This document shows, one piece after another, positions 3,611 to 33,793 of a stretch of 64,000 bases of DNA; position 1 is the stretch's first letter; the number at the start of each line of letters is the position of its first letter. The notes under the pieces are model-generated. The model was not told where the DNA came from, made no database searches, and saw only the letters and a list, made by a program, of their open reading frames with translations. The position numbers were made by a program, and so were the translations under genes. The DNA is from Promethearchaeati archaeon (GTDB lineage: Archaea; Asgardarchaeota; Heimdallarchaeia; Heimdallarchaeales; Heimdallarchaeaceae): positions 61,361-125,360 of the forward strand of contig JABLTJ010000014.1 in assembly GCA_013166775.1 (NCBI GenBank), written 5' to 3'.

Positions 3611-3726
3611 CAGGAATTTGGTTGGAATTCTCCTCTTTTTCTTCTTAGCTCAAATTAAATTCTTAATAGTTTATAGTAGATTCTTGTTATTTAAATCTTT
3701 CAGCATTAAAGTTAAATCTTGGATGA

Positions 3727-5001
3727 TTAGATGCGTTCTCCGTTGCTAGAAAGGATTGGAGCTGTTTCACTTTCTTTCTCCTTATTTTTCAAGAATAATT
3801 GCATAATTATTGGAATCATAATTGCAATAGGATAACCTAAAGTAGCTATCGGAAAAGTCCATGCACCCAATGCAACATAAATGAATGATCCTGCTTGTGT
3901 ACCTAGAGATCTAGCTAACCTTCTTCCTGCTCCAACGAATCCAGTTGAAGTTCCCCTATATTTCGGAGGGAGCCATCCATAGAAAAACGAGTTCCATGCA
4001 GGTCTAGACATATTTGCAGCTGTACTTCTTGTAACGAAGAAAATTGATACAGTCCACAGCGTTCCACCTAGTGATATGCCTAAAGCTAAAAGTGGAACTA
4101 AGAAATGAAGAACTGCTAGAGACTTTTCATTACCAAATCGATTGCTTATCTTAACCATGAGCAAGCTACCAAGAGCAATTCCAACATTTGATGCTGCAAG
4201 AATTACACTCCAAAGAATATCACTAGTTTGAAAATCTGTAATAATGTAATATTGAACAAAGGGTATTGCTATACCAGAAGTAAAGCCTATTATTGCTTCA
4301 CAAACAAAAAAAGCTACTAACTGAAAACCGATAGGTTTTTTGTTTTTATTTTCGTATGATTTCCAAACTTCACCTTTTGCTATTTCACTCGCATCTTCTT
4401 TCGATGTTTCAGGTATTGGAAATTTAAAAGCCAATAACATCGTAAGGAACAGAAATGCAGAGACAAAGAGCATTAGTGACATGTACGATTGTTTCTGAGA
4501 TTGAAACAGATTAAATACTGTGAGGAAGGCTCCGCCTAATAAAGGGGCTATAACTCCTGCAACATTCCAGAAGAATGCCATATAACCAAAGAATCTTGTT
4601 TTCTCTTTTTTGGTAGGTGTCACGTCTGCCATAAGTGTTGTTAGAGATATTTGAGCTAATTGTCCAGATACTCCAAAGAGAGAATAAGCTGCTATCATCC
4701 ATCCCTTGATTTCTGATACACTAGAGAAATAAAATAGCAGCATTGATAAGGCTGAAATTCCAATCCCAACAATCAATGTGTATTTTCTTTTTTTCACATC
4801 TGTAATATATCCTAAACCGATAATCACTCCTGTAGCTAAGTATCCAGCAACAGAAAAAAGAAGTCCATAAAAATACTCATTCCATTCAAGGAAGATAAGA
4901 AACAAAGGTACGAGATATCGAATTAATCTTGTGTTGAAACCAACCAGAGTTCTAAATAAGATGATGGGGACAACTTTCTGATTCTTAGTATTGCTGAACA
5001 T
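3727..5001 (-). CDS. MFS transporter
   Basis: About 12 hydrophobic helices; motif-A-like GYITDVKKRK and KISNRFGNEK; PPKYRGTSTG. Confidence 0.9.
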   Translation of the reverse strand: MFSNTKNQKVVPIILFRTLVGFNTRLIRYLVPLFLIFLEWNEYFYGLLFSVAGYLATGVIIGLGYITDVKKRKYTLIVGIGISALSMLLFYFSSVSEIKGWMIAAYSLFGVSGQLAQISLTTLMADVTPTKKEKTRFFGYMAFFWNVAGVIAPLLGGAFLTVFNLFQSQKQSYMSLMLFVSAFLFLTMLLAFKFPIPETSKEDASEIAKGEVWKSYENKNKKPIGFQLVAFFVCEAIIGFTSGIAIPFVQYYIITDFQTSDILWSVILAASNVGIALGSLLMVKISNRFGNEKSLAVLHFLVPLLALGISLGGTLWTVSIFFVTRSTAANMSRPAWNSFFYGWLPPKYRGTSTGFVGAGRRLARSLGTQAGSFIYVALGAWTFPIATLGYPIAIMIPIIMQLFLKNKEKESETAPILSSNGERI

Positions 5002-5095
5002 GATTCTTAACTCGATTAAACATGAATGAAACTGATTGTTGGATGAGAAAAACTCAAATTAATTAAGCTTGTGTTAGGTAAAAGAAAGAAGATGT

Positions 5096-5929
5096 TCACT
5101 TCTTATCTCTAACTAGGATTTTCTCAATTAGTTCTACTAATGGTTCACTATGAGCTGCAACATTTGTTTCCAAATCAAAATATTCGGAATTTTTAACCGC
5201 CTTGTAGACTCTTTTTGTCCATTCAGCTTCATGAGCTTTATCTTTCTCAGCTCCGACCATTATGCATTTTGCATCAACTGTAGCTAGCTCTTCCTCTTTA
5301 ATTCGGAATTTTCTTATTTTGATTAAGGTTTTTCGGATCTTTTTAACATCATAACTGTCAAAATAGCCATAATATTTCTTCAATTGATCCTTTTGTGTTC
5401 TATCCAAATAAAAATATTTAATATAAAATTTTGCAAAAGGTTTAATGAAAAGCTTCCAGACTATTGGATAACAAATATAAACAAAAGGCCAAGACCAATC
5501 TGGGATCTCAGTTTTTTGTATAGGTCCAACTAGAAAAGTGTATGTTGGTTTCATAAGTTTCATGCTTAGGGATCTAAGAATAAAAGCAGCACCCATTGAA
5601 GAAGCTACCATGAAATACTCATCCAGCATCAGATAATCCATAATCTGAGCAATATCCTTAGCAAATCTATTAAAGGTCAAATCTGGTTTTTTCTTCAATT
5701 CTGCAGTATGTTTCTCACGACTCTCAATAATATAAATTCTATAATCATCTTTCATTCTTAAGAGGAGTTTATCCCATGCTGAGGGAAGAGAACCAAACCC
5801 TGGAATTAGGACTAAAGTCCCTTTGACTTCTTTTTCAGGTTCATATGAAAGAACACGTAAATTCTCATTCCCTTCTTCCCCTACTTGGACACGTAATACT
5901 GATGCGAATTTCTCAAATTCAGAGCTCAT
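5096..5929 (-). CDS. alpha/beta-fold hydrolase
   Basis: LIPGFGS oxyanion loop, ASSMG nucleophile elbow, GAEKD, C-terminal AAHSEP; paralog of 61716-62576. Confidence 0.85.
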   Translation of the reverse strand: MSSEFEKFASVLRVQVGEEGNENLRVLSYEPEKEVKGTLVLIPGFGSLPSAWDKLLLRMKDDYRIYIIESREKHTAELKKKPDLTFNRFAKDIAQIMDYLMLDEYFMVASSMGAAFILRSLSMKLMKPTYTFLVGPIQKTEIPDWSWPFVYICYPIVWKLFIKPFAKFYIKYFYLDRTQKDQLKKYYGYFDSYDVKKIRKTLIKIRKFRIKEEELATVDAKCIMVGAEKDKAHEAEWTKRVYKAVKNSEYFDLETNVAAHSEPLVELIEKILVRDKK

Positions 5930-6014
5930 AAGCCAAATGAAAATAAGTATTTATTAAATTTATTCCAAAAATCATTATCTAGAAAAGACTAAATATGACC
6001 AATATTCAATTCTT

Positions 6015-7178
6015 ATGAGTCAAGTGAGAGAACAATCACTCATAGATGAAGCAATATCAGAATTTAAGAAGAAAGATTCAAACATTATTTCTATTTTTGA
6101 TAATCGCATGTGCAATTATTGTGGTGCTTGTTATCTTGTTTGTCCCGTTGAAGCAATTTCTTATGAAGATGGGAACATAGAAGTAAGTGAAGATTGCATT
6201 TTTTGCGAGAAATGTCTAAATATTTGTTCTCAAAATCAAGAGCACCGATATTCCAAAGATTTTCAGTTGAGAGAAAGAAATGATTCCATTCTCAAGATTG
6301 AACCTAAAATGAATAAGATTCCTTTTGGGGAGATAATCAGTTTATACAATTGTAAATCGGGGAGAAGAGATAGGAAAGAATTTGCCATGGTTGGAGGTGC
6401 TGTTACATCGATTCTCGAATGCGCAATTAAAGAGGGAATAATTGACGGAGCTATTACCATAGATTTCAGTTCAGGAAGAATTTTTCCAAGTTCTGTTTTA
6501 ATTACTAATCCTGATGATTTACTAAGAGTAGCTGGGAGTAGATACTTACCAACTTATTCTTTGTACATACTAAAAGAACTGCATATGATGGATAATATAT
6601 CCTCTGTTGCAATCGTTACATTACCATGCCAAGCTTATGTAATTGATAAAATAAGAAAAGACAATGATACAAAAGAATTGATTAAGAAAATAAAAGTAGT
6701 TATAACCCTCTTGTGTGGAAATGGTTTACCTTCAAGAGATGAAGTTGCAGAATTTCTATCTAAACAAGGATTGAACCTCGAAAATCATAATTTTAAAGCA
6801 TATAGGGAAAAAGCAGTTTCTAAGCCTTATCTAAATCCAATGAATAAAAATAGATACGTTTATGAAGAAAACAGCGGTAAAAAGAAATCTTTTGCCTCTA
6901 AAAGGGTATTCCACACAAGAGGAGAGAAGCATTGCGGTCTAATTTGTCCAGATTATACAGGTATAGCAAGTGATATTTCAGTTGGTGGATCTGGGTTATC
7001 TAAGAATATTGTTATAACAAGATCCGATGAAGGAGAAAAATTAACAAAACTAGCAATTGATAAAGGATATTTAGTCAAACTTTCAAAATTCTCTAAATTG
7101 AACAGAATCGTTGTGAATTTTATGGGAAATCGCAAAAGAGAAAACATAAGAAAAGCATATAAGAGAACATTTACTTAA
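6015..7178 (+). CDS. F420-reducing hydrogenase/dehydrogenase beta-subunit family protein with N-terminal 2x[4Fe-4S] ferredoxin
   Basis: CNYCGACYLVCP and CIFCEKCLNIC; FrhB-type motifs GGAVTSIL, AGSRY, LPCQ, LLCG, CPDYTGIASDISVG. Confidence 0.85.
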   Translation: MSQVREQSLIDEAISEFKKKDSNIISIFDNRMCNYCGACYLVCPVEAISYEDGNIEVSEDCIFCEKCLNICSQNQEHRYSKDFQLRERNDSILKIEPKMNKIPFGEIISLYNCKSGRRDRKEFAMVGGAVTSILECAIKEGIIDGAITIDFSSGRIFPSSVLITNPDDLLRVAGSRYLPTYSLYILKELHMMDNISSVAIVTLPCQAYVIDKIRKDNDTKELIKKIKVVITLLCGNGLPSRDEVAEFLSKQGLNLENHNFKAYREKAVSKPYLNPMNKNRYVYEENSGKKKSFASKRVFHTRGEKHCGLICPDYTGIASDISVGGSGLSKNIVITRSDEGEKLTKLAIDKGYLVKLSKFSKLNRIVVNFMGNRKRENIRKAYKRTFT

Positions 7179-7234
7179 TTAAAGCCTTAATTAAAGAAAA
7201 GTTAAATAATATAGACAAACAGCTCCAATAACCA

Positions 7235-8686
7235 ATGATGCCACTAGATCAAATAGGCTACTTAATCATGTCTCTTGGAGCAATTCTAGTCGCGGGATTC
7301 ATTGGCGCTCATTTTCTGAAAAAAATACACATTCCACAAGTTTTAGGATTTATTTTGATGGGAATAATACTTGGGTTACCAAACAGATATATTAGTGAAT
7401 TTATATCTCCTACCTTAATTAATCAAATAACACCTATTTTAGTAACGGTAGCTCTTGGAATAATTGGTTTTAATATTGGAGCAGAATTATCATGGAAGGA
7501 GCTTAAAAAAATAGATCGAAAACTGTTAGTAGTTTTAATAGCTGATAGTATAGGAACATTTCTAGTTATATCTGTTCTAGTTGGGGTCATTGCAACTCGA
7601 ATTTATGGTGATCCTATATGGTGGAATTTTGCATTTATTCTCGGAGCTTTAGGTAGCGCAACTGCTCCCGCTGCAACTGCAGATGTGTTATGGGAAAACA
7701 AGTCAAAAGGGCCTCTTACACAAGCTATCCTTTTTATTTTAGCAGTTGATGATATAATTTCCATTGTACTTGTTCAAATAACATCAAATGTTACTTATGC
7801 TAAACTACCTGGTCAAAAATTAGATGCTTTACATATTTTCACTGAATTTTCCATAGAAGTCTTTGCAGCTTTAGGAATCGGAATTCTTGCAGGAATAATA
7901 ATCACGTGGGCAATAAATCGAGTCAAAGATCACGGTGAAATATTAGAGGTCATAATTGGTGCTCTTATAATTATAATTGGAACAACTTTAGCTATACATT
8001 CCTCAGCAATTTTAGGAGCAATGGCATTTGGAATAATAATAGCAACTTTCACGAAATCCAAGAAAAAAACGGATAGTGTTTTTCATGACATTTTTAAGAT
8101 TGGAAGTCCTATAGTAGCTCTATTCTTTATTATAGTTGGTTTTAATATAAATCCTGCAAATTTAAGATTAATAGGGATTTTAGGGGCTCTTTACTTAGTT
8201 GGAAGAACAATAGGCAAAGTGGGATTCGTAACCATAACAGCAAGAGCAATGAAAACAGAAAGAGTAATAAGCAAATATCTTGGTTTTACTCTTTTTTCGC
8301 AAGCAGGTGTAGCTTTAGGACTTGCAGTGAGTATAGATTCAAGATTTCGAGGTACTCTATATGAAGAACAAGCTAACCTTATACTTACAACAATTACCGG
8401 GACAATCATCATTGTTCAGATAATAGGACCTTTGCTAGTTAGGTGGGCGATACACAGAGCGGGAGAGGTAGGAGGAAAACTAGAAAAGGATCTGGTTGAG
8501 GAAGCTACAATGAGAAACAAAGACGAAGAAGTGGATGAAGAAAAGAATGATAAGGTATACATGAATGATGAAAAATCTGAAGATGATCCAGGTCTTGTCA
8601 GCATCAGTGATAGGTTTTCGAAACTAAGATTACCAAGAAAACTCAAAGAGAGAGATTATATTCGGAAGAAACGTAAAAAGCATTAA
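7235..8686 (+). CDS. cation:proton antiporter (Na+/H+ exchanger family)
   Basis: About 12 TM helices; ATAPAAT, LAVDD, QAGVALGLA, IGP motifs. Confidence 0.9.
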   Translation: MMPLDQIGYLIMSLGAILVAGFIGAHFLKKIHIPQVLGFILMGIILGLPNRYISEFISPTLINQITPILVTVALGIIGFNIGAELSWKELKKIDRKLLVVLIADSIGTFLVISVLVGVIATRIYGDPIWWNFAFILGALGSATAPAATADVLWENKSKGPLTQAILFILAVDDIISIVLVQITSNVTYAKLPGQKLDALHIFTEFSIEVFAALGIGILAGIIITWAINRVKDHGEILEVIIGALIIIIGTTLAIHSSAILGAMAFGIIIATFTKSKKKTDSVFHDIFKIGSPIVALFFIIVGFNINPANLRLIGILGALYLVGRTIGKVGFVTITARAMKTERVISKYLGFTLFSQAGVALGLAVSIDSRFRGTLYEEQANLILTTITGTIIIVQIIGPLLVRWAIHRAGEVGGKLEKDLVEEATMRNKDEEVDEEKNDKVYMNDEKSEDDPGLVSISDRFSKLRLPRKLKERDYIRKKRKKH

Positions 8687-8696
8687 TACGAATTAT

Positions 8697-9116
8697 TCAG
8701 CTATCCTCTTTTTTCATTAAGTATCGATCAGCAAAGTGTTGAATAATCTCTTTAGCGGAATCGTAATTTAGGTTAAGTTGTTCTCCCCATATACTTTTTG
8801 CTCTTTCAAGTTTATTCATCAATAAACCTAATTTCAATCCTGTTATTGTATTCCGAGTAAATAATTCACTTCCTTGGAAATTTAATACTCCATACTCCTG
8901 CATAAGTTTTCCATAATCTTGACATAACTCATTGTATTCTGCACTGATTTGATCTAGATCTGCATTCAATTTCTCTGAATCAGATAGATCTGCGTCTTCT
9001 AAATCTTGTATGTAAACATAATAATCTAATAATTGAGTTACCATATCTTCTACATCTGAAACTATGTCAATTGTTGTATCGGGGATTAGTATCCTGTATT
9101 TCTTCTTTTTGTACAT
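8697..9116 (-). CDS. hypothetical protein
   Basis: 139-aa helical ORF closely packed with upstream genes. Confidence 0.6.
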   Translation of the reverse strand: MYKKKKYRILIPDTTIDIVSDVEDMVTQLLDYYVYIQDLEDADLSDSEKLNADLDQISAEYNELCQDYGKLMQEYGVLNFQGSELFTRNTITGLKLGLLMNKLERAKSIWGEQLNLNYDSAKEIIQHFADRYLMKKEDS

Positions 9117-9124
9117 AATATTAC

Positions 9125-9493
9125 CTAATTTACTTTATTTAATGTTTCAAGTGATTGTCCAAGCTCTACAATTGTCAAATAATCATCTTCGTATTCAATA
9201 AGAAGGTCTCTCTGAAGCTTTGTTTTCTTTTTTATTTCTACAATATCATCTGAGCGTTGATTTATTTTTTGTTTTAATAATCTAACATTGAAGAAAGTAA
9301 GTATTTTCTCCCAAATTCTTTTATCTTTGTAACCAATAAAATCTTCAAAAAAACTCTCAATATCAGTCAAAATTTCTTCTGGATGTTTATTACTTCTTTC
9401 TGATAGCTTGAGTAATATCTGTTTCTGCTTATAATTGAGCTCATATTTAACGTACTTTTTTTTCTCAATATTCGTCATTGAAAATTTCACCAT
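9125..9493 (-). CDS. hypothetical protein (possible N-terminal ribbon-helix-helix, C-terminal coiled coil)
   Basis: VKYELNYKQKQILLKLSERSNKHPEEILTD has RHH-like spacing; overlaps upstream ORF by 7 nt. Confidence 0.5.
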   Translation of the reverse strand: MVKFSMTNIEKKKYVKYELNYKQKQILLKLSERSNKHPEEILTDIESFFEDFIGYKDKRIWEKILTFFNVRLLKQKINQRSDDIVEIKKKTKLQRDLLIEYEDDYLTIVELGQSLETLNKVN

Positions 9494-10002
9494 ATTTTTT
9501 GCTGGATTTTTTTCTCTATAACTAATGTATCGACAGCCGTTAAAGACATAACTTCTAAGGTTTTTGCTATTGTTACACTATCATTAAAATCTGGATCAAG
9601 ACCAGCAATTCCTACTGCATGAACAATCTCATAAATTGCCAGGTTTTCATCTCCATTATAATCTAGATGTTTTATTAATTTAGCCTCAAAAGAAACGACA
9701 GAGTGATTGTAAATAGGAGCGGAAATTTTATTTCCATTTTTTAATAATTTAGATCCCAGTTGATCCTTATTATATGCTGAAATTAAAATTCTATCTTCTC
9801 CTTTTCTAAGTAAATTCAATGAGAGTTCCTTTGGTACTCCATTCTTTGTAAGAGCTATTAAAACTCTACACTCACTGAGAGGAAAGTATTTTGTAAGTAC
9901 ATAGAGATCTTGATTTTCTATACTTCCTCCAATACCGAGTAATGGACTAATTGAAACTAAAAAATTGCATAAATCTTGAGGTAATTTTACCAGATCAAAC
10001 AT
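9487..10002 (-). CDS. flavin reductase-like (split barrel) domain protein
   Basis: SAPIYNHSVVSFEAKLIKHLDYNGDENLAIYEIV resembles the flavin reductase C-terminal motif (P...ECxV...GDH.LFIGEV) but lacks the His. Confidence 0.5.
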   Translation of the reverse strand: MFDLVKLPQDLCNFLVSISPLLGIGGSIENQDLYVLTKYFPLSECRVLIALTKNGVPKELSLNLLRKGEDRILISAYNKDQLGSKLLKNGNKISAPIYNHSVVSFEAKLIKHLDYNGDENLAIYEIVHAVGIAGLDPDFNDSVTIAKTLEVMSLTAVDTLVIEKKIQQKIW

Positions 10003-10103
10003 ACAAATATCATTTTGACTACCATTTAAGAAAGTTATCTTTATTTTTACTTTCTCACAAACTATTTCGAAGAAGTTATATTCTATAATGAAATAGATTT
10101 ATT

Positions 10104-10466
10104 ATGGAAGAGATTAATTTCAACGAATACATGGAAAAATCAAGTTTCATGCTCGAAAAATATAGAAATAATCTTGATCATCTGAGAAGAATAATACATA
10201 ATATTGAAAAAAGCTTCTTCCTGCCCATAGAAATGGTTGAGTACTTTTATAGTAATAAAAGTGAATACTATACTTGGCTTCAAACACAAGATTCGATCAT
10301 ATCATTAGAAGATGCATATAATGAATTAGTAGGGAGTATGTTAGACGCTATAGCTGCTCCAGATGATTTTAATTATTTCTTAAAAGATCAGAGAATACCA
10401 GTTCTGCAAGTTATTGAACCTGAAGAAGAAGAATCAACTGAGAATGATGAGGAATTAACTGTTTAG
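10104..10466 (+). CDS. hypothetical acidic protein
   Basis: 120-aa ORF, ATG start, fills the gap between flanking genes. Confidence 0.6.
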   Translation: MEEINFNEYMEKSSFMLEKYRNNLDHLRRIIHNIEKSFFLPIEMVEYFYSNKSEYYTWLQTQDSIISLEDAYNELVGSMLDAIAAPDDFNYFLKDQRIPVLQVIEPEEEESTENDEELTV

Positions 10467-10468
10467 AG

Positions 10469-11011
10469 TTAACTTCTTAGTCGTCTAAATAAATCAGTAA
10501 GAATACCACCTGTAACTCCCCAAATCTTGTAGCTTTTATACCTATAATATGGAAGATTTAATCCTTCAAAATCTCCCATTACGTTGTTTTCAGGTTTGAT
10601 TAATTCAGTTATGGGAGCGAGAAAATAGTGTTCAACCTCTAAATTGTTAATCCTTATCTTAGAGTTCTCCTCCACTAAACCAACAAAAGGCAACACATAA
10701 TAATTGCTAATTGTGATTGATGGATTCAAGCTACCAATTAGGTTAATTTTATCGCTACTTATTCCTACTTCTTCTAATGTTTCTCGAAGAGCTGTGGTTT
10801 GAAGGTTCATATCCTCTTCATCAAAACGACCTCCAGGAAATGAGATTTGACCTTGATGGTGTCTTACTATCTGAGTTCTAAGTGTGAATAAAATCCTTTC
10901 ACTTTCTGAAAAGATTGGGATTAAAACTGCAGCTAATTTTAAATTTTTAATTGGTTCAATAGGAGCATCTAGAGGATCAACAGTGTTTCTAATTTTTTCA
11001 AGAATGTTCAT
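10469..11011 (-). CDS. Nudix CoA pyrophosphatase (NudL/NUDT7 family)
   Basis: AAVLIP, LFTLR..HHQGQISFPGG, Nudix box ALRETLEEVG, IWGVTG. Confidence 0.93.
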   Translation of the reverse strand: MNILEKIRNTVDPLDAPIEPIKNLKLAAVLIPIFSESERILFTLRTQIVRHHQGQISFPGGRFDEEDMNLQTTALRETLEEVGISSDKINLIGSLNPSITISNYYVLPFVGLVEENSKIRINNLEVEHYFLAPITELIKPENNVMGDFEGLNLPYYRYKSYKIWGVTGGILTDLFRRLRS

Positions 11012-11045
11012 TTTACTATCACATAAAAATAAGAAAGAAAAGAAA

Positions 11046-11690
11046 TTAGCTAAAAGTAGCTTTTACATCATCATCTAATTTTGCGACAATTTCTTCTACT
11101 TCTGTAAGTTCTTCAAGTTCTTTATACATCTTCTCAGCATAATCTGCATCTTTTTTCTTAATCCATGCAAGATTGATTTCGACGTTATGAACAGCTGATT
11201 TGAGACCAGTTAAAGCACATAATGCACCGACACCGATATCAGAAAGGGCTTGAACATTTCCTTTAGTTCCTAATTCATTCAGAATATCTATGACTTCTCT
11301 ACATGCTTTTACTGTTTCTAAAGGAATTTCAGCTGCAACTTTATATTCTGCTAGAATCTTTTCTGATCTTGCAACTACTTGTTCTTCAGAATCTTTAGGC
11401 ATTCCAAAAGCAGCTATAACTCCACTGAATGCATTTGCATCCTTATCTACTAATTCAGTGAGTTCTTTGCGAAGTTCTTCTGTTCTTTTAAGTTTCTTAT
11501 TGAATAAATCTTCAACATCTTCATAACCTTCCTTTCCAATGGTAAGTCGGGCAACCATAGAACCTAAAGCAGCACCCATTGCTCCTGCAATAGCAGCAGC
11601 AGCACCACCACCTGGAGCGGGTGTGGATGATGCAAGTTCATCTAGAAAATCTATTATTTTCATATCAACGAGAATTTTGTTTTCCATCAA
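11046..11690 (-). CDS. formiminotetrahydrofolate cyclodeaminase (FTCD C-terminal domain)
   Basis: FLDELASSTPAPGGGAAAA, KGNVQALSDIGVG, NVEINL; TTG start overlaps the upstream TGA stop. Confidence 0.93.
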   Translation of the reverse strand: MMENKILVDMKIIDFLDELASSTPAPGGGAAAAIAGAMGAALGSMVARLTIGKEGYEDVEDLFNKKLKRTEELRKELTELVDKDANAFSGVIAAFGMPKDSEEQVVARSEKILAEYKVAAEIPLETVKACREVIDILNELGTKGNVQALSDIGVGALCALTGLKSAVHNVEINLAWIKKKDADYAEKMYKELEELTEVEEIVAKLDDDVKATFS

Positions 11691-23206: not shown

Positions 23207-23376
23207 TTGAACCAATCCAACATTACAGATTTTATTCATTTAAAAATCTTGTTTACCTTTACTTCAAAACATAGTTCTTTTGCAGTATAATGAAAATCTA
23301 ATTTGAAATCTGTAAATAATTGCATAAAAATCATTGCAAGGATATACTTATATTTCGCACATTCTTCTTTAGAATT

Positions 23377-24276
23377 ATGATTCGCATAGTAACAGATAGT
23401 GCTTCAGACATTCCTTGGGATTTTGCAAAGGAAAACAAGATCAAAGTTGTTTCTTTGTATGTAATGGTTCATGATGAAGTGTTAGTGGAAGATGAAAATT
23501 TCAATCGAGAGAGCTACTATAAACTCTTCGAGGATGAAAAAGCTTTCTTTAATATTCCAAAACTAAATCTCTATTCATTTGTGCCCAAAACATCTCAACC
23601 AAATCCACAGGATTTCACAAAAGCTTATCTTGAGCTGATAGAAGAAGGAATTAAAGAAATAATCGTTATTAACGTAACAGCGGGATTAAGTGGAACAATA
23701 AATAGCTCAAATTTAGCTGCAAAACAGATAATGAGAAAGAATAAGGATGTAAAGATTCATATAATTGATGCAAAATCAGCTTCTTATCCTGAAGTTTTAC
23801 TAATTAGAATAGCTCTAAAATTAATAAAGAAAGGATATAATGGAGAGAAGATTGCAGAGATTCTTCGAGAACAAGCAATTAAAATTAAGACAGTTATTCT
23901 CTTACCCACGTTGAGATATCTCTGGAAAGGAGGAAGATTGGGAACTTCAAAATTCGTATTAGGATCGATGCTAAGAAAGAAACCAATTGTCACAATGACT
24001 GAAGAAGGAAATGTAATAACTGTAGGATCAGCTAGTGATGTAGAAAGTGGATTAAAAGAATCTTTACGATTGAGTACTGATGATTATACAAAAGAACCAA
24101 AAGCAATTACTATTGTCTATGGTAGTAGTTTAGAATACGCAAACCTATGTTCAGAAATAATCAAAGAAAAATATCCAAAGATGCCTATAGAAATTGCTCA
24201 AAGTGGAGGTTCAGTCTTATCTCATCTTGGACCTGAATCTATTGGTGTAATTTCAGATTTTACTGATGAATTCTAA
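23377..24276 (+). CDS. DegV/FakB family fatty-acid-binding protein
   Basis: IVTDSASD, PKTSQPNP, LSGTINS, IDAKSAS, LWKGGRL, KPI, HLGP; start at MIRIV. Confidence 0.92.
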   Translation: MIRIVTDSASDIPWDFAKENKIKVVSLYVMVHDEVLVEDENFNRESYYKLFEDEKAFFNIPKLNLYSFVPKTSQPNPQDFTKAYLELIEEGIKEIIVINVTAGLSGTINSSNLAAKQIMRKNKDVKIHIIDAKSASYPEVLLIRIALKLIKKGYNGEKIAEILREQAIKIKTVILLPTLRYLWKGGRLGTSKFVLGSMLRKKPIVTMTEEGNVITVGSASDVESGLKESLRLSTDDYTKEPKAITIVYGSSLEYANLCSEIIKEKYPKMPIEIAQSGGSVLSHLGPESIGVISDFTDEF

Positions 24277-24381
24277 ATAAAAATCTCTAGCATATTTAAC
24301 ATTTTCTTCTATTATTTCGCTTTTTTCTTTTTTGAATGAGTAAAACTAAAATATTGCTTTGTAATATATTATTCGTTAATA

Positions 24382-25404
24382 ATGAAAAGAGTAGGTTTAC
24401 CTCGAGCACTAATTCACTATAAGTTTTCTGAATTATGGATACCATTCTTTAAGGAACTTGGTGCTGAGGTAGTTATCTCACCTTTAACAACAAAGAAAAT
24501 AAAAGATATTGCAGTTAGGTCAGCACCAGATGAAGATTGCTATTCAACTAAACTTTATTTTGGTCATGCTTTGGTTCTAAAAGATAAAGTAGATTATTTA
24601 TTCATTCCACGTTATGGGGGTTACCATAAAAATAAGGTTGGGTGTCCTAAGTTTATTGGTTTAGCAGAAGTCTTAAAATCAATGATTCCTAATTTACCTC
24701 CTATTATTATGCCTCATTTTAATCGAGCGAAAGGTGGAGATCCAAGAAGAATTTTACTAAAACGTGCTTTTGAGGTTGGATTAATATTCACAAAGAATCC
24801 TTTCAAGATTTTTCGAGCGATTAAAAAAGCTTTCAAGGCTTTTAAGGAACACAAAAGAATTTTAATTATTGATGAAGAAACTCTTCATAAATGGGAGCTT
24901 TCAGAAATAATCCTAAATGATTTTCCTTTATACAAGGATAATGAAAGACAGCTTAAGATAGCTTTGGTTGGGCATTCTTATGTTCTGAATGACCCATATT
25001 CCTCACTAGACATAAGATCGATTCTTAAAAACCACGGTATAGATATTATTACTTCTGAACAAATGCCAAGAAGATTGATTGAAGAACAAATGGGAAAATT
25101 AGAGAGCGATCTTTATTTTGAATATGAGAGAGAAATTCTTGGGACAATAATGTATTTTCTTGAAAACAAAACTGTTGACGGAATTGTACATCTTATGATA
25201 TTCAGTTGTGGTCCTGATTCTATTGCAGGTGAACTTGCTGCAAGATTATCCAAAAGACATCCTACTATTCCTCTCTTACAATTGGTATTTGATGAGTTGA
25301 CAGGAGAAGCTGGAATGAGAACAAGAATAGAAGCGTTTGTTGATATGTTAAGAAGAAGTGAAGCAGAGCAAGCTATTCTTCTAACAACAAAAATTCACAT
25401 CTAA
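24382..25404 (+). CDS. DUF2229 / 2-hydroxyacyl-CoA dehydratase-like Fe-S subunit (PlsA/Ger reductase-domain-like)
   Basis: VGLPRAL...FFKELGAEVVISP, DEDCYSTK, GCPKF, FSCGPDS, DELTGEAGMRTRIEAF. Confidence 0.85.
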   Translation: MKRVGLPRALIHYKFSELWIPFFKELGAEVVISPLTTKKIKDIAVRSAPDEDCYSTKLYFGHALVLKDKVDYLFIPRYGGYHKNKVGCPKFIGLAEVLKSMIPNLPPIIMPHFNRAKGGDPRRILLKRAFEVGLIFTKNPFKIFRAIKKAFKAFKEHKRILIIDEETLHKWELSEIILNDFPLYKDNERQLKIALVGHSYVLNDPYSSLDIRSILKNHGIDIITSEQMPRRLIEEQMGKLESDLYFEYEREILGTIMYFLENKTVDGIVHLMIFSCGPDSIAGELAARLSKRHPTIPLLQLVFDELTGEAGMRTRIEAFVDMLRRSEAEQAILLTTKIHI

Positions 25405-25419
25405 AGGAGCAAAAAAGAA

Positions 25420-26508
25420 ATGTCACTTTCCTTTCCATATCTGGGAACCTTTAGTTACGTAGTAGAAGCAATAGCGAAAGGAATGAACAGAAAGGATATT
25501 ATTCTTCCACATGAACCTACATACAAAACCAAGCAACTAGGTTCTCGTCATGCTTCAGAGTTTGTATGTACTCCATTCAAAATGCTTCTTGGATCATTGA
25601 TTGAGGTATTAGATCGAGGAGCATATCAGATAATTTTTACTTTGTTTGTAGATTTTTGTAGATTAGGTTACTATTCTCCACTTTTCAAGTTAATTTTAGA
25701 CGATCTTGGATATGATTTTGAATTAATTGATCTAGATTGGCAGAACAAACCTGAATTCTTTAGAAATTTCAAAAAATTGACAGGAGATTTGAGTGCTTGG
25801 CAAGCTTTTCAAGCATTTCGAGTTGGTTGGATAAAGAATAGATATATCGACTATACAGAAGAATTACAATTTAGTTATGGGGCAATTGAAGTAAACAAAG
25901 GATCAACAAGAAGAGTAGCAAAAAAAGCATTTAGACTAATTGTAGAGACAGAAAGAATGAGCAATATCAGAAAACTCCCTGATGTTGTTAAAAAAATGTT
26001 TGAAAATGAAGTTGAAATTGATAAAAAAGCAAATCCACTCAAAATAGGAGTAGTAGGAGAATTATATGCAGTTGTTGAACCTGCAATAAATCTTCACATC
26101 ATGAAACGTTTGAATGATCTTGGTGTAATCACCTATACCCCAATCACTTTTACTCGATGGATAGATTTGGGAAAAAGATTGAACTTCTTCAAGAAACATC
26201 ATCATAAAGAAGCAGTAAAGAGAGCAAAACCTTACTTAGAATATCGTCTTGGAGGAAAAGCACAAGAATCTATTGGGAGTGCAATTTTGTATAAGGAAGA
26301 GGGATGGGATGGAATGATACACCTATATCCATTTACTTGCATGCCAGAAATCATCTCAAGGAGTATACTACCACAGGTTAGTAAGGAATATGATTTTCCT
26401 ATTCTATCTCTTGTATTAGATGAACACACTGGTGAAGCTGGTTTACAAACAAGATTAGAAGCTTATGTTGATTTACTTGATCGAAAGAGAAGAGGAGATT
26501 TTAAATAA
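25420..26508 (+). CDS. 2-hydroxyacyl-CoA dehydratase-like Fe-S subunit (PlsR-like)
   Basis: VCTPFK, FCRLGYY, KIGVVGELY, PFTCMPE, DEHTGEAGLQTRLEAY. Confidence 0.85.
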   Translation: MSLSFPYLGTFSYVVEAIAKGMNRKDIILPHEPTYKTKQLGSRHASEFVCTPFKMLLGSLIEVLDRGAYQIIFTLFVDFCRLGYYSPLFKLILDDLGYDFELIDLDWQNKPEFFRNFKKLTGDLSAWQAFQAFRVGWIKNRYIDYTEELQFSYGAIEVNKGSTRRVAKKAFRLIVETERMSNIRKLPDVVKKMFENEVEIDKKANPLKIGVVGELYAVVEPAINLHIMKRLNDLGVITYTPITFTRWIDLGKRLNFFKKHHHKEAVKRAKPYLEYRLGGKAQESIGSAILYKEEGWDGMIHLYPFTCMPEIISRSILPQVSKEYDFPILSLVLDEHTGEAGLQTRLEAYVDLLDRKRRGDFK

Positions 26509-26529
26509 AAAGAAGAATGAGGTTATGAA

Positions 26530-27510
26530 ATGACTCAAAGTGTAGAAAGGTATTATTTGGGAGTAGATGTTGGTTCCATCAGCACAAATTTAGCAGTGAT
26601 TGATCAATCAAAAGAATTAATAGATTCAGTCTATTTAAGAACAGAGGGTAGGCCTGTAAATTCTGTGCAAAAAGGAATAAAGTTAATGAGAGATAAAATT
26701 GGAGAGGATCTCGATATTTCTGGAGCAGGATCAACAGGAAGTGCTAGAAAATTGACCGGAGTAATTGTAGGAGCTGATATAGTAAAGAACGAAATTACCG
26801 CTCATGCGTTAGCTTCTTTGCATTACAACCCAGATATTCAGACAGTTATGGAAATAGGGGGGCAAGATAGCAAAATAATAATCATTAGGAATAGCATTGT
26901 TGTAGATTTCGCGATGAATACTGTTTGTGCAGCTGGGACAGGTTCATTCTTAGATATGCAAGCAAGTAGATTGGATATTCCAATTGAGAATTTTGGAAGA
27001 CTGGCATTAAAATCAGAAAATGCTGTTTCTATAGCTGGAAGATGTACTGTATTTGCTGAAAGTGATATGATTCATAAGCAACAACTAGGTCATCCAACAG
27101 AAGATATCATCAAAGGTTTATGCGAAGCACTTGCACGAAATTATCTAAATAATGTTGGAAAAGGAAAGGATATCAAACCACCAATCATGTTTCAAGGTGG
27201 AGTTGCTGCAAATGCTGGTATGCGAGAAGCTTTCGAAAAATATTTGGAAAAAGAGATTCTAATTCCTGAATATTATGATGTAATGGGAGCTATCGGGGCA
27301 GCAATTCTTGCACAGGAAGATAAAGAAAGAAAGAAAAAACATACAGATTCAAAATTCTTTGGATGGGACATTCCAGATATGAAGTTTAATACAACAGGAT
27401 TTGAGTGTGATGGTTGCCCTAATATCTGCGAAATTGTTGAGATTCGTAAAAATGAGGAGTTAATTGCTAGATGGGGGAGTAGATGTGGAAAATGGGATGT
27501 AGCAGATTAG
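26530..27510 (+). CDS. ATP-dependent acyl-CoA dehydratase activase (BadF/BadG/BcrA/BcrD family)
   Basis: LGVDVGSIST, EIGGQDSK, MNTVCAAGTGSFL, GRCTVFAESD, QGGVAAN; C-terminal CDGCPNIC...SRC. Confidence 0.93.
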   Translation: MTQSVERYYLGVDVGSISTNLAVIDQSKELIDSVYLRTEGRPVNSVQKGIKLMRDKIGEDLDISGAGSTGSARKLTGVIVGADIVKNEITAHALASLHYNPDIQTVMEIGGQDSKIIIIRNSIVVDFAMNTVCAAGTGSFLDMQASRLDIPIENFGRLALKSENAVSIAGRCTVFAESDMIHKQQLGHPTEDIIKGLCEALARNYLNNVGKGKDIKPPIMFQGGVAANAGMREAFEKYLEKEILIPEYYDVMGAIGAAILAQEDKERKKKHTDSKFFGWDIPDMKFNTTGFECDGCPNICEIVEIRKNEELIARWGSRCGKWDVAD

Positions 27511-28383: not shown

Positions 28384-29478
28384 TCATCTCCAGTCAAAAT
28401 AAAATGATTCGATTTCCTCAGGTATTGGAATATTTTTTAAGTTAAATAAATCTAAATTGACTTTGTTTTCAAAAAAGAAGAATTTAGCCTTTTTCAAAGG
28501 TTTCATATCAAAGTAAGGAATGTAAGGTGTCTGTAAACCAAACCATCCCTTTTCTTTTGATTTCTGACACAGATAATTTGATAAATTAGTAGCTTCTTTT
28601 ACATTCAACCTATGAATATGAACCATATCGAGCCAGCCATAGGGAATCTTATTTCCAAGTCCTGCAAGGAGAAATTCCCAAGCTAATATAAAACCTTGAA
28701 CCTTTCCATTTTTGTCTTCATGTACAACACAAACTACATGTGGATTTTCCAACATCCATTTTAAATCATCAAGTTCGGGAACTATAGATAATTGATTTCG
28801 TTCTACTTGCTCTTGGATAATCTCATATATGTCAGGTATGTCTTTCTCTTGAAAAGCTCTTATCTGTTTTGAATCAATGATTTTATACTTTTGAAAGAAC
28901 TTGAAAACTAGTTTTTCGTACCATCTTAGTCTGACTACTTTAGATACAGTATTTACATCAAAAGCTTTGATAACAAATTTGTTCAGAGTAACTACTCTTT
29001 GGAAAGGTAAATTCATCTCCCTGGATACGGAAGTAGAGACATCGACACCATGTTGATCTGGCTCGTGGAAAGAGAAACCTCCATGATAATCACTTGATAT
29101 TCCAATTTCCCATAGCTTTAAACCCATCCTTTTAGCAAGACCTTTTCTCTGATGATCAGAATGTACACACAACCAAGACGGAATAGCAAAATTGTAAACC
29201 TTCCCCATAATTGAGAGATTTCTAGGAATTGAGCCTAAGAATCCAACCATTTTTCCTGTTGGCTTATGGATAGCTCTAATGAAAAGATCCTTGTCAACAG
29301 AAGGAGCGCCGTACATAATGTTGAAAGTATCTTCTGAAAAAGCAACTGTCGCACCTTCTTTTAAGGCATTTTCATCATTTACAAACGCTTGAGTAATTAA
29401 TTTGGAGAATTCTTCAAATTTCTCTTTCTCAATAGTAAATTGTTCAATGAGATAATCATCAGAGTTTTTACTTATCAA
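28384..29478 (-). CDS. tandem-GNAT acyltransferase, N-myristoyltransferase-like
   Basis: GKMVGFLGSIP, WLCVHSDHQRKGLA, IRAFQEKDIP, HEDKNGKVQGFI, KEKGW, PLKKAKF, LFNLK, in the same order as remembered eukaryotic NMT motifs. Confidence 0.75.
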   Translation of the reverse strand: MISKNSDDYLIEQFTIEKEKFEEFSKLITQAFVNDENALKEGATVAFSEDTFNIMYGAPSVDKDLFIRAIHKPTGKMVGFLGSIPRNLSIMGKVYNFAIPSWLCVHSDHQRKGLAKRMGLKLWEIGISSDYHGGFSFHEPDQHGVDVSTSVSREMNLPFQRVVTLNKFVIKAFDVNTVSKVVRLRWYEKLVFKFFQKYKIIDSKQIRAFQEKDIPDIYEIIQEQVERNQLSIVPELDDLKWMLENPHVVCVVHEDKNGKVQGFILAWEFLLAGLGNKIPYGWLDMVHIHRLNVKEATNLSNYLCQKSKEKGWFGLQTPYIPYFDMKPLKKAKFFFFENKVNLDLFNLKNIPIPEEIESFYFDWR

Positions 29479-29539: not shown

Positions 29540-30100
29540 TTACAACTGTCTACCTGATAAGAAAATTTCATCAATGAATGATGTTATTGATCTTCTTTCT
29601 TCGAAATTTAACTGCAGATCTGTTTTACTGATAGTAACTAACTTGTTCCAGATATTACTTGTTTCACTTAAAATATTTGAAAATTCATCTAGTCTTTTTA
29701 TAGCATGAAAGGATTTTCCTACAAAGAAATAACAGAAGAACAAAGAGTCTAATTGCTTCATAATGTAAGAGTAATCATACAATTTACCACGTTTAACTAT
29801 GTCAAAATCAGTTGTAATCTCAAGATTTTCTATGATGTAGGGATCTGTTTCTTCTCCTGACCCTGTAAAATTATAGTTAAGAAAATCTTCATTAGAACCA
29901 ATTTCAATAGGTTCATGGGGTGCTAACTGCAGTAAAATACTGATTTTAGATAGGTTAATTGTGGGAAAGAAATCATTAGTTTTTGGTTGATTATAATATT
30001 GAAAAGAATCTAAACTACTATCTTCGATTTGACAGCTATTCTGAGGTAAGATTGAAGAGATTGGTATCATTATAATTAGGAATATTAAAGCAATAATCAA
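29540..30100 (-). pseudogene. chimeric, internally deleted gene: beta-helix surface-protein N-cap joined to a longin-like C-terminal fragment
   Basis: Signal peptide and PHEPIEI...GSGEETDPYIIENL (as in 14933 and 43146), then no beta-helix repeats; ends YIMKQLDSLFFCYFFVGKSFHAIKRLDEF. Confidence 0.55.
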
Positions 30101-31401: not shown

Positions 31402-32355
31402 GTGTTGAGTATAGAAGAAAAATCAAAGGCACTAAAATTCGACAAGAAGGGTATCCCACTTGTAGTCATTGGCTTAGCTCAAGCAGGTAAAACATCCTTT
31501 GTCCAGCGAATATTAACTGGAGAATTTCAGACAACGACAACTACTATGGGTCTTCAGTTTGAAACTGCAAATGTAGGAGATGCTAGATTCGATATTTTTG
31601 ATCTTGGAGGTCATATTAGCTATCGAAAATCAATCTGGGAAACTTATGTTAAACTCGCTTTTGGTATTGTGTTTGTTATTGACTCAGCAAATCCAGATAG
31701 CTTTAATGAAGCTAAGGAAGAATTCTGGAAAAGTGTCGATCAGAAGGATACTGCAGATGAATTCCTCATTCTATTTCTGTGTAATAAAACTGATCTTGAC
31801 GATAGTGAAGATTTGGAAATGATCATCAATCACATGGAATTATTCAAATTAGCGGAAAAGGTAAATGCTTCCTATCAATTCTTCAAGACTAGTATGAAAA
31901 CAGGAGAAAACATTGATAATGCTCTGGAATGGTTGAAGAAAAATACTTCCAAACTTTCTGCAAAACGAGTTGTCGATCCGCTAATGTTTATGTTAGCAGA
32001 TTTAGAAGGATTTCCTCTCCTTGAGATAGATAAACTTGGACTAAAGGAAGACCCTACACTTCTCGCTGGTTTCCTTGCAGCAATAGAAAGTTTTGGCCAG
32101 AGGCTTTTTGGTAAAACCGGAATGTTACAGTACATGGTTTCCGGAGATCACAAGTATATAGTAAAAACAGATGAAAAATATATTTACTCTATGATTATCG
32201 CAAAGGAAGAATGCCAAGAGGAAGCAAGAAGACAAATCGATATTCTTAGTGAAGTAATAGCAGGGATGAAGGAATTTGGCATTTTAGAAGGAATTGTATT
32301 TCAAATTTTGGGTGTTAATCCTTCTGAATATGTTATGGAAAGAGGATTCAAGTAA
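31402..32355 (+). CDS. Arf/Sar1-family small GTPase fused to a C-terminal longin/roadblock-like domain
   Basis: G1 GLAQAGKTS, G2 TTMG, G3 FDLGGH, GIVFVIDSA, G4 NKTD, G5 TSMKTG; C-terminal LADLEGFPL...DPTLLAGFLAAIESFGQRLFG. Confidence 0.9.
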   Translation: MLSIEEKSKALKFDKKGIPLVVIGLAQAGKTSFVQRILTGEFQTTTTTMGLQFETANVGDARFDIFDLGGHISYRKSIWETYVKLAFGIVFVIDSANPDSFNEAKEEFWKSVDQKDTADEFLILFLCNKTDLDDSEDLEMIINHMELFKLAEKVNASYQFFKTSMKTGENIDNALEWLKKNTSKLSAKRVVDPLMFMLADLEGFPLLEIDKLGLKEDPTLLAGFLAAIESFGQRLFGKTGMLQYMVSGDHKYIVKTDEKYIYSMIIAKEECQEEARRQIDILSEVIAGMKEFGILEGIVFQILGVNPSEYVMERGFK

Positions 32356-32413
32356 CCTTCAAACATTTTTAACAACTTAAAGAAAAACATAAAAGCAAAG
32401 GTCAAACTTTGTT

Positions 32414-33793
32414 GTGAGAACAATGGTTAATCAGTTCTTTTATCCTAAAACTATTGCTGTAATTGGCGCTACTGCAGATCCCAAGAAATTTGGAAATGCT
32501 GTTACAATGAATCTTTTGGAAAACAAAAATCTGCAAAGTGAAATCTTCCCAATAAATCCTAAATCTGAATTAATCTTAGGTTTGAAAAGTTATCCGTCCA
32601 TTTTGGAGATAGAACAAAAGATTGATTTAGCTATTCTACTTGTACCTGCAAAAGCAGTTCCAATCGTAGTTGATCAGTGTGTAGAGAAGCAAGTAAAGAG
32701 AATTATCATTATCTCTGCAGGCTTTGGAGAGATTAACGAAGAGGGAAAGCAACTGGAGAGAGAGATGGTTAGAAAAGTACAAGAGGTAGGATCGAAGATA
32801 ATTGGTCCTAATTGTGTAGGTATTATGAATTTAGATATAGGATTGAATGCTTCATTTGTTCTCACACCACTCAAGGGACATGTAAGCATGGTCACACAAT
32901 CAGGAAGCTTTGGAGCAGCTTGTTTGTATGAGATGTGGTGGCAAGGTTTAGGATTTTCCAAATTTGCGAATCTTGGTAATATGGCAGATGTGAATTTAAC
33001 TAATCTTCTTGAGTATTTCAAAGATGATAAAGATACTGAAGTAGTTTGTATTTACTTGGAGAGTGTTATTGATGGTAGAGCTTTTTACAACAAAATGAAG
33101 GAAGTCGCAAACATCAAGCCGACAGTGATTCTCAAAGGTGGGAGAACTATTGCAGGAATGAAGAGCGCGAGTAGTCATACTGGATCAATAGCTACTGATT
33201 ATACTTCACTAAAAGCTGCAATCAAACAATCAGGTGCAACTTTATGTGAGAGTTTAATGGATTACATTACTGCAATCAAAGCATTCTCGTTTCTACCATT
33301 ACCTAAAGGAAAGAGAATTGGAATCTTAACTAACTCTGGAGGAAGTGCAGTTCTTTTCAGTGATAATGCGGAAGAATTTGGTCTAGAAATTGCAGAATTT
33401 TCTAAAGATTTTGAAGAAAAAATCAGTCCATTCTTAATCCCTCTTGTAAAGAAAGTTAACCCATTGGATATGATAGCTGGAGCAGATGGAGAAGCTTACT
33501 ACAACGTTACAAAAGCAATGCTTGAGAATCCAGAAATAGATATAGTTGTTCCATGTGCTGTTATTCCAACATTTCTCGAGATGAAACCAGATGAACACTT
33601 CTTAGGTGTTATCAAAGCATGGAATGAAACAGGTAGAAAGAAACCAATATTACCTATATTCATGAGTGGATCTTTGCTGAAGCATGTTAAAGGAATTGCA
33701 GAAGATGAGAAAGTTCCTATCTTTATTTCTCCAAAAGAAGCTGCTTTTGCTGCTAAGGTACTATTAGATAGAGCTAAAAAACTTCAGAAATAA
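32414..33793 (+). CDS. acdA: ADP-forming acyl/acetate-CoA ligase alpha subunit
   Basis: IAVIGAT, ISAGFGE, IIGPNCVG, TQSGS, LGNMAD, phospho-His SSHTGS, TNSGG, NPLD. Confidence 0.9.
   Translation: MRTMVNQFFYPKTIAVIGATADPKKFGNAVTMNLLENKNLQSEIFPINPKSELILGLKSYPSILEIEQKIDLAILLVPAKAVPIVVDQCVEKQVKRIIIISAGFGEINEEGKQLEREMVRKVQEVGSKIIGPNCVGIMNLDIGLNASFVLTPLKGHVSMVTQSGSFGAACLYEMWWQGLGFSKFANLGNMADVNLTNLLEYFKDDKDTEVVCIYLESVIDGRAFYNKMKEVANIKPTVILKGGRTIAGMKSASSHTGSIATDYTSLKAAIKQSGATLCESLMDYITAIKAFSFLPLPKGKRIGILTNSGGSAVLFSDNAEEFGLEIAEFSKDFEEKISPFLIPLVKKVNPLDMIAGADGEAYYNVTKAMLENPEIDIVVPCAVIPTFLEMKPDEHFLGVIKAWNETGRKKPILPIFMSGSLLKHVKGIAEDEKVPIFISPKEAAFAAKVLLDRAKKLQK

Follow-up and report, generated by a model that had tools for sequence, protein, structure and literature searches.

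Results and discussion

The gene and its genome

The 64,000-nucleotide stretch of Asgard archaeal DNA analysed here (the window; Heimdallarchaeaceae, contig JABLTJ010000014.1) carries on its reverse strand a gene for a 364-residue protein related to eukaryotic N-myristoyltransferase (NMT), with two fused lobes of the GCN5-related N-acetyltransferase (GNAT) type. The coordinates of the gene, its parts, its neighbours and the related loci are collected in Table 1. The reading frame runs without interruption for 364 codons from a TTG start to the stop codon at 28384-28386. The homologues are equal in length, and the conserved residues Y9 and E12 lie upstream of the first internal methionine, and hence the TTG start is credible. 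The window is AT-rich, with a GC content of ~33%, and lies on the contig that we call C16 of an assembly of 3.85 Mb in 115 contigs, estimated to be 88.7% complete. The gene is present in DNA datasets from marine-sediment metagenomes, of which three are possibly the source sample itself, and no RNA dataset is listed among the carriers of the sequence.

The gene is under clear constraint. Homologues from the Asgard lineages share 32-85% identity, and 19 positions are invariant in an alignment of 36 sequences, which is the alignment behind the invariant residues named below. The same genome encodes a second intact paralogue, also of 364 residues, which is 55% identical and ends in ...EWR. Two matches were found in several genomes of the genus, and four in one genome of the same class. 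We considered a pseudogene, an artefact and a chance reading frame as explanations for the gene, and rejected all three on the strong conservation, the confident fold and the second intact paralogue. In a single-contig genome of the same family (L023, G074:C1:1138304-1141232) the orthologue is seemingly split across two reading frames ~1.8 kb apart, the N-terminal part covering residues 3-151 and the C-terminal part 141-364, which may reflect an insertion or a broken gene.

Sequence similarity to NMT

The earlier note on this DNA, made from the letters and by eye, had described a full-length NMT-like protein in a prokaryote, and our searches bear this out. In addition to the intact reading frame, the Pfam family NMT (PF01233) matches residues 17-116 with 40.6 bits (E 3.1e-10; curated cutoff 25) and outscores the generic GNAT families, and all 31 distinct matches of a single-sequence phmmer search against the PDB are NMTs, the best having an E-value of 3.7e-7 over residues 17-277. 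A profile built from 36 diverse homologues likewise ranks 35 distinct PDB sequences of NMTs first (E 1.3e-13 to 7.6e-5), and the first matches other than NMT are AAC(3)-I at E 0.013 and Eis at E 0.56. This profile aligns the N-terminal lobe of the query to yeast NMT residues 89-198, and query residues 200-271 to yeast residues 255-334. When the Asgard clade was compared with a profile of true NMTs by hhalign, a probability of 97.9% was obtained (E 3e-13, 257 columns). Judged from these sequence comparisons, the collinearity with NMT is far above chance. The query is just 12-17% identical to NMTs.

The earlier note had also paired a series of motifs with human NMT1. The alignment programs recover the pairs up to about residue 290, among them VGFLGSIP with VGFISAIP, SWLCVH with NFLCVH, IRAFQEKDI with LRPMETKDI and HEDKNGKVQGF with VENANGEVTDF, but sequence alignment does not recover the last two, i.e. 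those of KEKGW and LKKAKF...LFNLK. The second Pfam family of NMT, NMT_C (PF02799), gives a collinear match to residues 202-264 that stays below its threshold (15.4 bits versus a cutoff of 27.9, E 0.015). The Eis-type family Acetyltransf_9 also matches the N-terminal lobe (E 1.5e-7, residues 16-118).

Fold and chain end

The AlphaFold2 (AF2) model built on the family alignment has a pLDDT of 93.9 and a pTM of 0.91. Its top 50 Foldseek matches are NMTs only (TM score 0.71-0.79), and structural alignment to NMTs gives Z scores of 31-33 with 328-338 residues superposed at 2.6-3.1 A. A structure search independent of Foldseek, over 48,161 representative chains, found yeast NMT at Z 31.4 and Cryptosporidium NMT at Z 29.5; the other tandem GNATs in the same search were MAB_4324 (Z 22.2), Eis (19.8), the clavulanate GNAT (18.5), MshD (15.2) and HisAT (14.5), and FemX scored 13.1. 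The worry expressed in the earlier note, that other tandem GNATs might turn out to be the best structural matches, is removed by the Z scores of 31-33 for NMT against 22.2 for the next protein. NMT is thus the closest solved relative of the Asgard protein by both sequence and fold.

The two proteins also end at the same place. The chains of all 36 aligned homologues (36/36) finish in one and the same column; R364 is invariant and W363 almost invariant. Residue 364 of the model pairs with the last residue of NMT in six species, i.e. residue 496 in human, 455 in yeast, 492 in Aspergillus fumigatus, 421 in Leishmania major, 410 in Plasmodium vivax and 451 in Candida albicans. Against a human NMT1 construct without its last 3 residues, which serves as a control, the alignment stops at model residue 361, paired with NMT residue 493, which makes the register of the chain end exact. 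The observation in the earlier note that the C-termini lie in the same register is therefore correct, as the structural alignment reaches the last residue of both proteins. In comparison, MAB_4324, the clavulanate GNAT, MshD and HisAT align only to about residue 345-349.

In the N-terminal lobe, phmmer, hmmsearch, MAFFT and hhalign agree in pairing the strand S101-W102-L103-C104-V105-H106 with the oxyanion-hole strand N-F-L-C-V-H of NMT. The pyrophosphate-binding motif of GNATs, Q-R-K-G-L-A, follows downstream as a canonical coenzyme A (CoA) loop, and P100, V105 and H109 are invariant. Many positions of the C-terminal lobe are conserved as well: R207, D213, W241, W267, G273, G281, W282, D284, H287, G311, W312, G314, Q316 and P318 are invariant or nearly so.

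Compared with eukaryotic NMT (EC 2.3.1.97; PF01233 and PF02799; yeast Nmt1p 2P6E, human NMT1 5O9S), the Asgard protein has the same double-GNAT fold and an equivalent chain end, and shares the oxyanion strand (SWLCVH, NFLCVH in NMT) and the R...D motif that opens the second lobe. It differs in starting only at about human residue 151, so that the N-terminal extension, the ribosome-binding region and the first ~35 residues of the core are missing; in ending with an invariant W-R, whereas the terminal residue of NMT is variable; and in keeping the canonical G-x-A form of the GNAT CoA loop. Thr282 of human NMT, which with its neighbours belongs to the catalytic and glycine-recognising residues, is not conserved either. 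MAFFT and hhalign pair it with the variable hydrophobic position 137, and phmmer pairs it with Q142, so that none of these methods places a conserved Thr or Ser there, although the alignments of this segment are of low confidence.

Table 1. Positions of the acyltransferase gene, its parts, its neighbours and related loci. Positions refer to the window unless a contig or plasmid is named.
Feature	Position	Strand	Basis or remark
NMT-type double-GNAT acyltransferase gene, 364 aa	28384..29478	-	Open reading frame and translation, Pfam NMT above cutoff, AF2 model, structural matches
N-terminal GNAT lobe, ~residues 5-195, predicted acyl-CoA binding	28894..29466	-	Pfam matches, secondary structure, alignment to yeast NMT; boundary approximate
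Bulge strand and CoA motif, residues 98-116, AIPSWLCVHSDHQRKGLAK	29131..29187	-	Concordant pairing by phmmer, hmmsearch, MAFFT and hhalign
C-terminal GNAT lobe, ~residues 196-347, predicted acceptor binding	28438..28893	-	Sub-threshold NMT_C, HMM stretch 200-271, conserved residues
Shared R207...D213 motif, start of second lobe	28840-28860	-	Alignment with NMT
C-terminal tail, residues 348-364, ends W363-R364	28387..28437	-	Invariant chain end and structural register; predicted carboxylate in active site
Paralogue of the NMT-like gene	G000:C107:147193-148284 (L002:760-1854)	-	Intact open reading frame
DegV, two DUF2229/HGD-D genes, BcrAD_BadFG activase; convergent with the NMT-like gene	23320-27510	+	Pfam
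186-aa open reading frame, 61 bp upstream of the NMT-like gene	29540-30100	-	No Pfam match
Arf-family GTPase, then acyl-CoA ligase alpha subunit (ADP-forming) 58 bp on	31402-33793	+	Pfam Arf E 1e-32
Operon on Deinococcus sp. KNUC1210 plasmid NZ_CP092189.1 (L010)	110911-125873		Tight operon
Cluster on contig L003: ketosynthase (KS), 3-hydroxyacyl-CoA dehydrogenase, enoyl-CoA hydratase, acyl carrier protein (ACP), then NMT-type gene; aminotransferase fusion	2924-11098		
Cluster on contig L004: HGD-D x2 and BcrAD activase, then NMT-type gene; MMPL, aminotransferase fusion	287-11044		

Proposed enzyme and mechanism

We consider it highly probable that the protein is an NMT-type acyl-CoA N-acyltransferase. 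NMT has the unusual feature that the carboxylate at the end of its own chain serves as catalytic base (PMC12219266), and the conserved chain end, the oxyanion strand and the CoA loop together support a mechanism of this kind in the Asgard protein. Our comparisons show the homology, the fold, the conserved bulge strand and the place and conservation of the chain end, and catalysis, acyl chain length and acceptor are inferred. In such a mechanism the N-terminal lobe would bind the acyl-CoA, and backbone amides at the bulge near W102-L103 would stabilise the tetrahedral intermediate. The C-terminal tail would fold back so that the free carboxylate of R364 could act as the base deprotonating the acceptor amine, and the acceptor would sit in a groove built largely by the C-terminal lobe.

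Other tandem GNATs show which of these features are shared more widely. MAB_4324 (7Q3A), the GNAT of the clavulanate pathway (2WPW), MshD (1OZP) and HisAT/NAT16 (9EMD) resemble the Asgard protein in having two fused lobes with one acyl-CoA site (Z 14.5-22.2), but no tail leads their chains back to the active site. HisAT places the Trp of a beta-hairpin where NMT has its C-terminus (PMC12219266).

The mycobacterial Eis (3SXN, 3R1K) is closer in architecture, being a tandem GNAT with an Acetyltransf_9 match whose structural alignment extends to residue 364. The C-terminal carboxylate of Eis reaches the active site as well. One could therefore regard the Asgard protein as an Eis-type short-chain acetyltransferase using acetyl-CoA, which would share with NMT only the double-GNAT frame and the C-terminal carboxylate. 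The Acetyltransf_9 match and the reach of the Eis alignment fit this, as does the Q-R-K-G-L-A motif, which has the canonical GNAT form rather than the variant found in NMT, and the source databases name the homologues "GNAT family N-acetyltransferase". We nevertheless think this explanation rather improbable. The profile prefers NMT to Eis by E 1e-13 against 0.56, and the structures agree (Z 31-33 and rmsd 2.6-2.9 A for NMT, Z 19.8 and rmsd 6.0 A for Eis), while the relatives examined adjoin genes of the fatty-acid and polyketide type, namely KS, beta-ketoacyl-ACP synthase III (KAS III), ACP and enoyl-CoA hydratase. Eis also differs in its extra C-terminal (SCP2-like) domain and in transferring acetyl groups from acetyl-CoA to aminoglycosides and proteins, whereas the Asgard protein consists of the two lobes and the tail.

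A mostly bacterial family

When 1.84 billion representatives were searched exhaustively with phmmer, 74 matches were obtained. The upper part is the Asgard clade, which extends down to ~32% identity, and those homologues whose source is named come almost without exception from Asgard archaea, namely Heimdallarchaeota (Heimdallarchaeaceae), Lokiarchaeota including Lokiarchaeum ossiferum, and Thor-, Gerd- and Sigynarchaeota. Two members of the clade that are 51-54% identical to the query, P0059 and P0049, carry the NCBI labels "candidate division Zixibacteria" and "Candidatus Bathyarchaeia"; they are probably from mis-binned Asgard contigs, or else the result of transfer.

Within its phylum the clade is patchy. 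It was found in 26 of 201 sampled genomes with 1-4 matches per genome, and by family in 18 of 21, 3 of 3, 3 of 3 and 1 of 43 genomes, with none in the 23 other families sampled. Such a scattered occurrence, with these copy numbers, is more easily reconciled with an accessory enzyme than with a universal one that processes proteins.

Below the Asgard clade lies a second tier of proteins, mostly of ~330-410 residues, which are 20-29% identical to the query (phmmer E 6e-13 to 9e-4). Pfam NMT matched 22 of the 33 proteins scanned in this tier, and most proteins of the tier end in a hydrophobic residue followed by Arg. They fall into three prokaryotic groups, here called B1, B2 and B3, and two true NMTs, P0175 and P0188, with BLAST E-values between the groups of up to 1e-24. 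P0175 matches human NMT1 with E 1e-58 and may be of giant-virus origin.

We assign B1 to bacteria from the GC content, the type of neighbours, matches on Deinococcus plasmids and the taxa of structure clusters. The B1 contigs have 58-63% GC, compared with 30-39% for the Asgard loci, and their neighbours are of bacterial type (MacB/FtsX, MMPL). Homologues are found on plasmids of Deinococcus, e.g. WP_239048588.1 of Deinococcus sp. KNUC1210. The nearest clusters in the ESM Atlas by sequence features and structure are 87-100% Bacteria, covering Myxococcota, Aminicenantota, Acidobacteriota, Pseudomonadota and others. Bacterial Atlas clusters of ~350 residues align to the Asgard model through residue 364 with TM scores of 0.81-0.87 and rmsd 2.3-2.8 A. 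The prokaryotic groups B1-B3 are like the Asgard protein in length (~330-410 residues), in a fold that matches to the last residue and in a frequent hydrophobic-Arg end, and differ from it in sequence (21-25% identity), the Asgard clade being monophyletic with a support of 100. Databases name the members of these groups only as GNAT family proteins.

The Asgard clade therefore lies inside a larger and mostly bacterial family. The earlier note had feared that its proposal would be undone if the protein proved to be part of a family common in bacteria and as distant from NMT as other GNATs. The wide bacterial spread is real, but the family as a whole is clearly nearer to NMT than other GNATs are.

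An Asgard origin for eukaryotic NMT?

The earlier note had proposed an Asgard relative or ancestor of NMT. The first half stands, given the almost exclusively Asgard origin of the named homologues and the position of NMT as the closest solved relative. An ancestor, i.e. a direct and vertically inherited source of the eukaryotic enzyme whatever its substrate, is a separate claim about origin. It is attractive since no prokaryotes are known to be more closely related to eukaryotes than the Asgard archaea, and it fares less well in our comparisons. The B1 profile matches NMT in the PDB with 89 bits (E 2e-24) and that of the Asgard clade with 54 bits (E 1e-13). In hhalign against the true-NMT profile B1 reaches E 8e-23 over 279 columns, again ahead of the Asgard clade, and the best pairwise BLAST score to NMT is 71 bits for B1 and 55 bits for the Asgard clade. 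The Asgard model is also structurally nearer to the bacterial clusters (TM 0.86-0.87, rmsd 2.3-2.4 A for the nearest) than to the eukaryotic NMT clusters (TM 0.80-0.81).

We inferred a tree of 74 sequences with IQ-TREE (LG+C20), in which the Asgard clade is monophyletic as stated above. The best tree groups NMT first with B1 (SH-aLRT 95) and next with B2 (96), and puts the Asgard clade on the other side, the branches being long and NMT being represented by two proxies. These proxies are metagenomic sequences, possibly from giant viruses, and there are only two of them because the search with P0175 returned 2 proteins. With the same two proxies, a clade of Asgard proteins and NMT is not rejected by the approximately unbiased (AU) test (log-likelihood difference 3.56, p 0.395), which leaves some room for the ancestor.

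All similarity measures and the best tree thus place B1 nearer to true NMT than they place the Asgard clade, which occurs in 4 of the 27 sampled families of its phylum. The simplest reading of these data does not favour an Asgard ancestry of NMT, which we regard as quite unlikely; the family being mostly bacterial with B1 nearer to NMT, the ancestor half of the earlier proposal is not supported, with the AU result (p 0.395) as a reservation.

Gene neighbourhoods and the acceptor

Hints about the acceptor come mainly from the relatives outside the Asgard archaea. The members of bacterial type that we examined lie in biosynthetic operons, while the Asgard genes are solitary. A class-III aminotransferase is encoded in the biosynthetic cluster of all three relatives examined (3/3), one from a named bacterium and two from bacterial-looking metagenomic contigs. 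The Deinococcus plasmid operon (L010) encodes a nonribosomal peptide synthetase (NRPS) condensation domain, a SagB/ThcOx dehydrogenase, a thioester reductase, the class-III aminotransferase, a hypothetical protein, the NMT-type GNAT, a radical SAM protein, KAS III and ACP, and looks like an uncharacterised pathway for an N-acyl amine or a lipopeptide. The contigs L003 and L004 are GC-rich, and each encodes a fusion of ~850-900 residues that joins the class-III aminotransferase to a shikimate-dehydrogenase-like domain. The layout of these bacterial clusters suggests that an amine produced by the pathway is N-acylated by the enzyme. A non-protein amine, which may be a metabolite or a lipid head group and would yield an N-acyl amide, is therefore the acceptor that we favour over a protein N-terminal glycine for the Asgard enzyme as well, although the chances are about evenly balanced.

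Several points weigh against this choice. The small-molecule acceptor is argued chiefly from bacterial proteins that are 21-25% identical to the Asgard clade and could have different substrates, and the Asgard genes lie outside conserved operons. The closest characterised enzyme, NMT, modifies proteins, and the strong conservation and the elaborate conserved surface of the C-terminal lobe would also fit a peptide-binding site.

These points lead to the idea that the protein is a proto-NMT, i.e. a fatty-acyltransferase acting on protein N-termini (or lysines), such that protein lipidation of the NMT kind was already present in Asgard archaea. The similarity to NMT in sequence, fold and catalytic chain-end geometry speaks for this, and a gene that stands alone is what one would expect of a general modifying enzyme. 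A small GTPase is also encoded 1.9 kb away in the window, and one lies directly upstream of the orthologue in L. ossiferum. However, this adjacency is not seen in the other ortholog loci compared, one of which is of the same genus. In a pooled Pfam scan of 135 neighbours from 15 loci, methyltransferases (7), ABC transporters (5), GNATs (5), PALP (3) and radical SAM proteins (3) lead, and the 25 commonest families include none of GTPases. The pooled Asgard neighbours also include MFS transporters, and the families are generic ones rather than trafficking genes.

The GTPases themselves offer little for such an enzyme to act on. The Arf-family GTPase of the window has a C-terminal extension of ~130 residues without a Pfam match and has no Gly2. 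In 23 of the 24 small-GTPase reading frames of the genome, Gly does not follow any candidate start. The remaining frame has an internal GTG that lies one codon behind an ATG, and its N-terminus is for this reason likely M-V-G, so that at most 1 of the 24 has a possible, and doubtful, Gly2. With this one reservation no Gly2 candidates were seen, in which the Asgard case differs from that of NMT. Asgard Arfs lacking Gly2 or a myristoylation signal have been reported (PMC11914678; bioRxiv 10.1101/2024.02.28.582541). The link to Gly2 of Arf GTPases at which the earlier note hinted is thus not supported by the GTPase starts, the unconserved neighbours and the pooled families. The sub-threshold NMT_C match, the lack of a conserved Thr282 in all three alignment methods (0/3), the patchy occurrence in the phylum and the three bacterial-type relatives in biosynthetic clusters also stand against a proto-NMT, and we consider it unlikely. 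The proposition that Asgard archaea acylate proteins at N-termini or lysines with this enzyme seems to us more doubtful still; were it true, NMT-style lipidation and membrane targeting would predate eukaryotes.

Our best overall explanation is an active NMT-type acyl-CoA N-acyltransferase that belongs to an Asgard-specific clade of a mainly bacterial family including eukaryotic NMT and that acts on a non-protein acceptor. We give this explanation in its entirety about as much credence as doubt.

Relation to previous work

N-myristoylation counts as a hallmark of eukaryotes, and through the Arf GTPases it is connected with how membrane trafficking began. An Asgard enzyme with the NMT fold and the C-terminal-carboxylate geometry is hence a concrete protein for asking about NMT-like acylation before eukaryotes. 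This appeal is tempered by the patchiness of the clade, by bacterial relatives that are at least as close to NMT, and by a genomic context pointing to the acylation of small molecules or lipids. From these three observations we speculate that NMT may have been recruited from a bacterial-type metabolic N-acyltransferase and not inherited from the archaeal host. Either outcome would inform how protein lipidation arose, and would open up an entirely uncharacterised enzyme family across many bacterial phyla.

The premise of the earlier note that NMT is a eukaryotic enzyme is outdated. Double GNATs of the "NMT-type" have been defined by a C-terminus that reaches the active site, and predicted structures of this type have been reported in archaea and bacteria, against the opinion that NMT is confined to eukaryotes; a supplementary table includes a Thorarchaeota protein as well as a "Euryarchaeota archaeon" protein with the annotation NMT (PMC12219266, Nat Commun 2025). 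The existence of prokaryotic NMT-type proteins is thus already published, while our search of the papers available to us found none describing an Asgard NMT homologue; PMC12493201 treats GH3 and alpha/beta-hydrolase enzymes and not GNATs. What is new here is the conserved Asgard clade with its invariant W-R terminus, patchiness and paralogy, the place of this clade beside the bacterial groups, and the negative evidence on Arf and Gly2.

Other genes around the locus

The convergent genes that end 0.9 kb from the NMT-like gene make up a split Pls/Ger-like reductase, preceded in Table 1 by DegV, a fatty-acid-binding family. In a Loki genome its counterpart is a single fusion of 1448 residues (L006:148-4494), and about five DUF2229 loci of this kind occur in the genome under study. 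On the other side, the 186-residue reading frame next to the NMT-like gene was not found near any orthologue among the loci compared; beyond it come an NAD-dependent epimerase, the Arf-family GTPase and the ADP-forming acyl-CoA ligase subunit.

When 17 neighbours from the window were compared by tblastn with 17 other ortholog loci, the only recurrent one was the BcrAD/PlsA-like homologue, in L006 and L016. One of these loci is of the same genus, L002 duplicates part of L011, and L006 and L016 represent one Loki-type lineage. Lipid-related genes lie near some orthologues, with the Pls/Ger-like reductase present in the window and at two Loki-type loci. Aminotransferase genes are found at 14 and 20 kb from the NMT-like gene in its own genome, and we rejected them as too distant to count as context.

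In L. ossiferum (L007:6146-9156) the orthologue lies on the same strand between the gene for a 202-residue small GTPase, ~200 bp upstream, and one for a CDP-alcohol phosphatidyltransferase. An Acyl_transf_3 gene stands just before, and the whole is possibly a lipid-related unit specific to this lineage.

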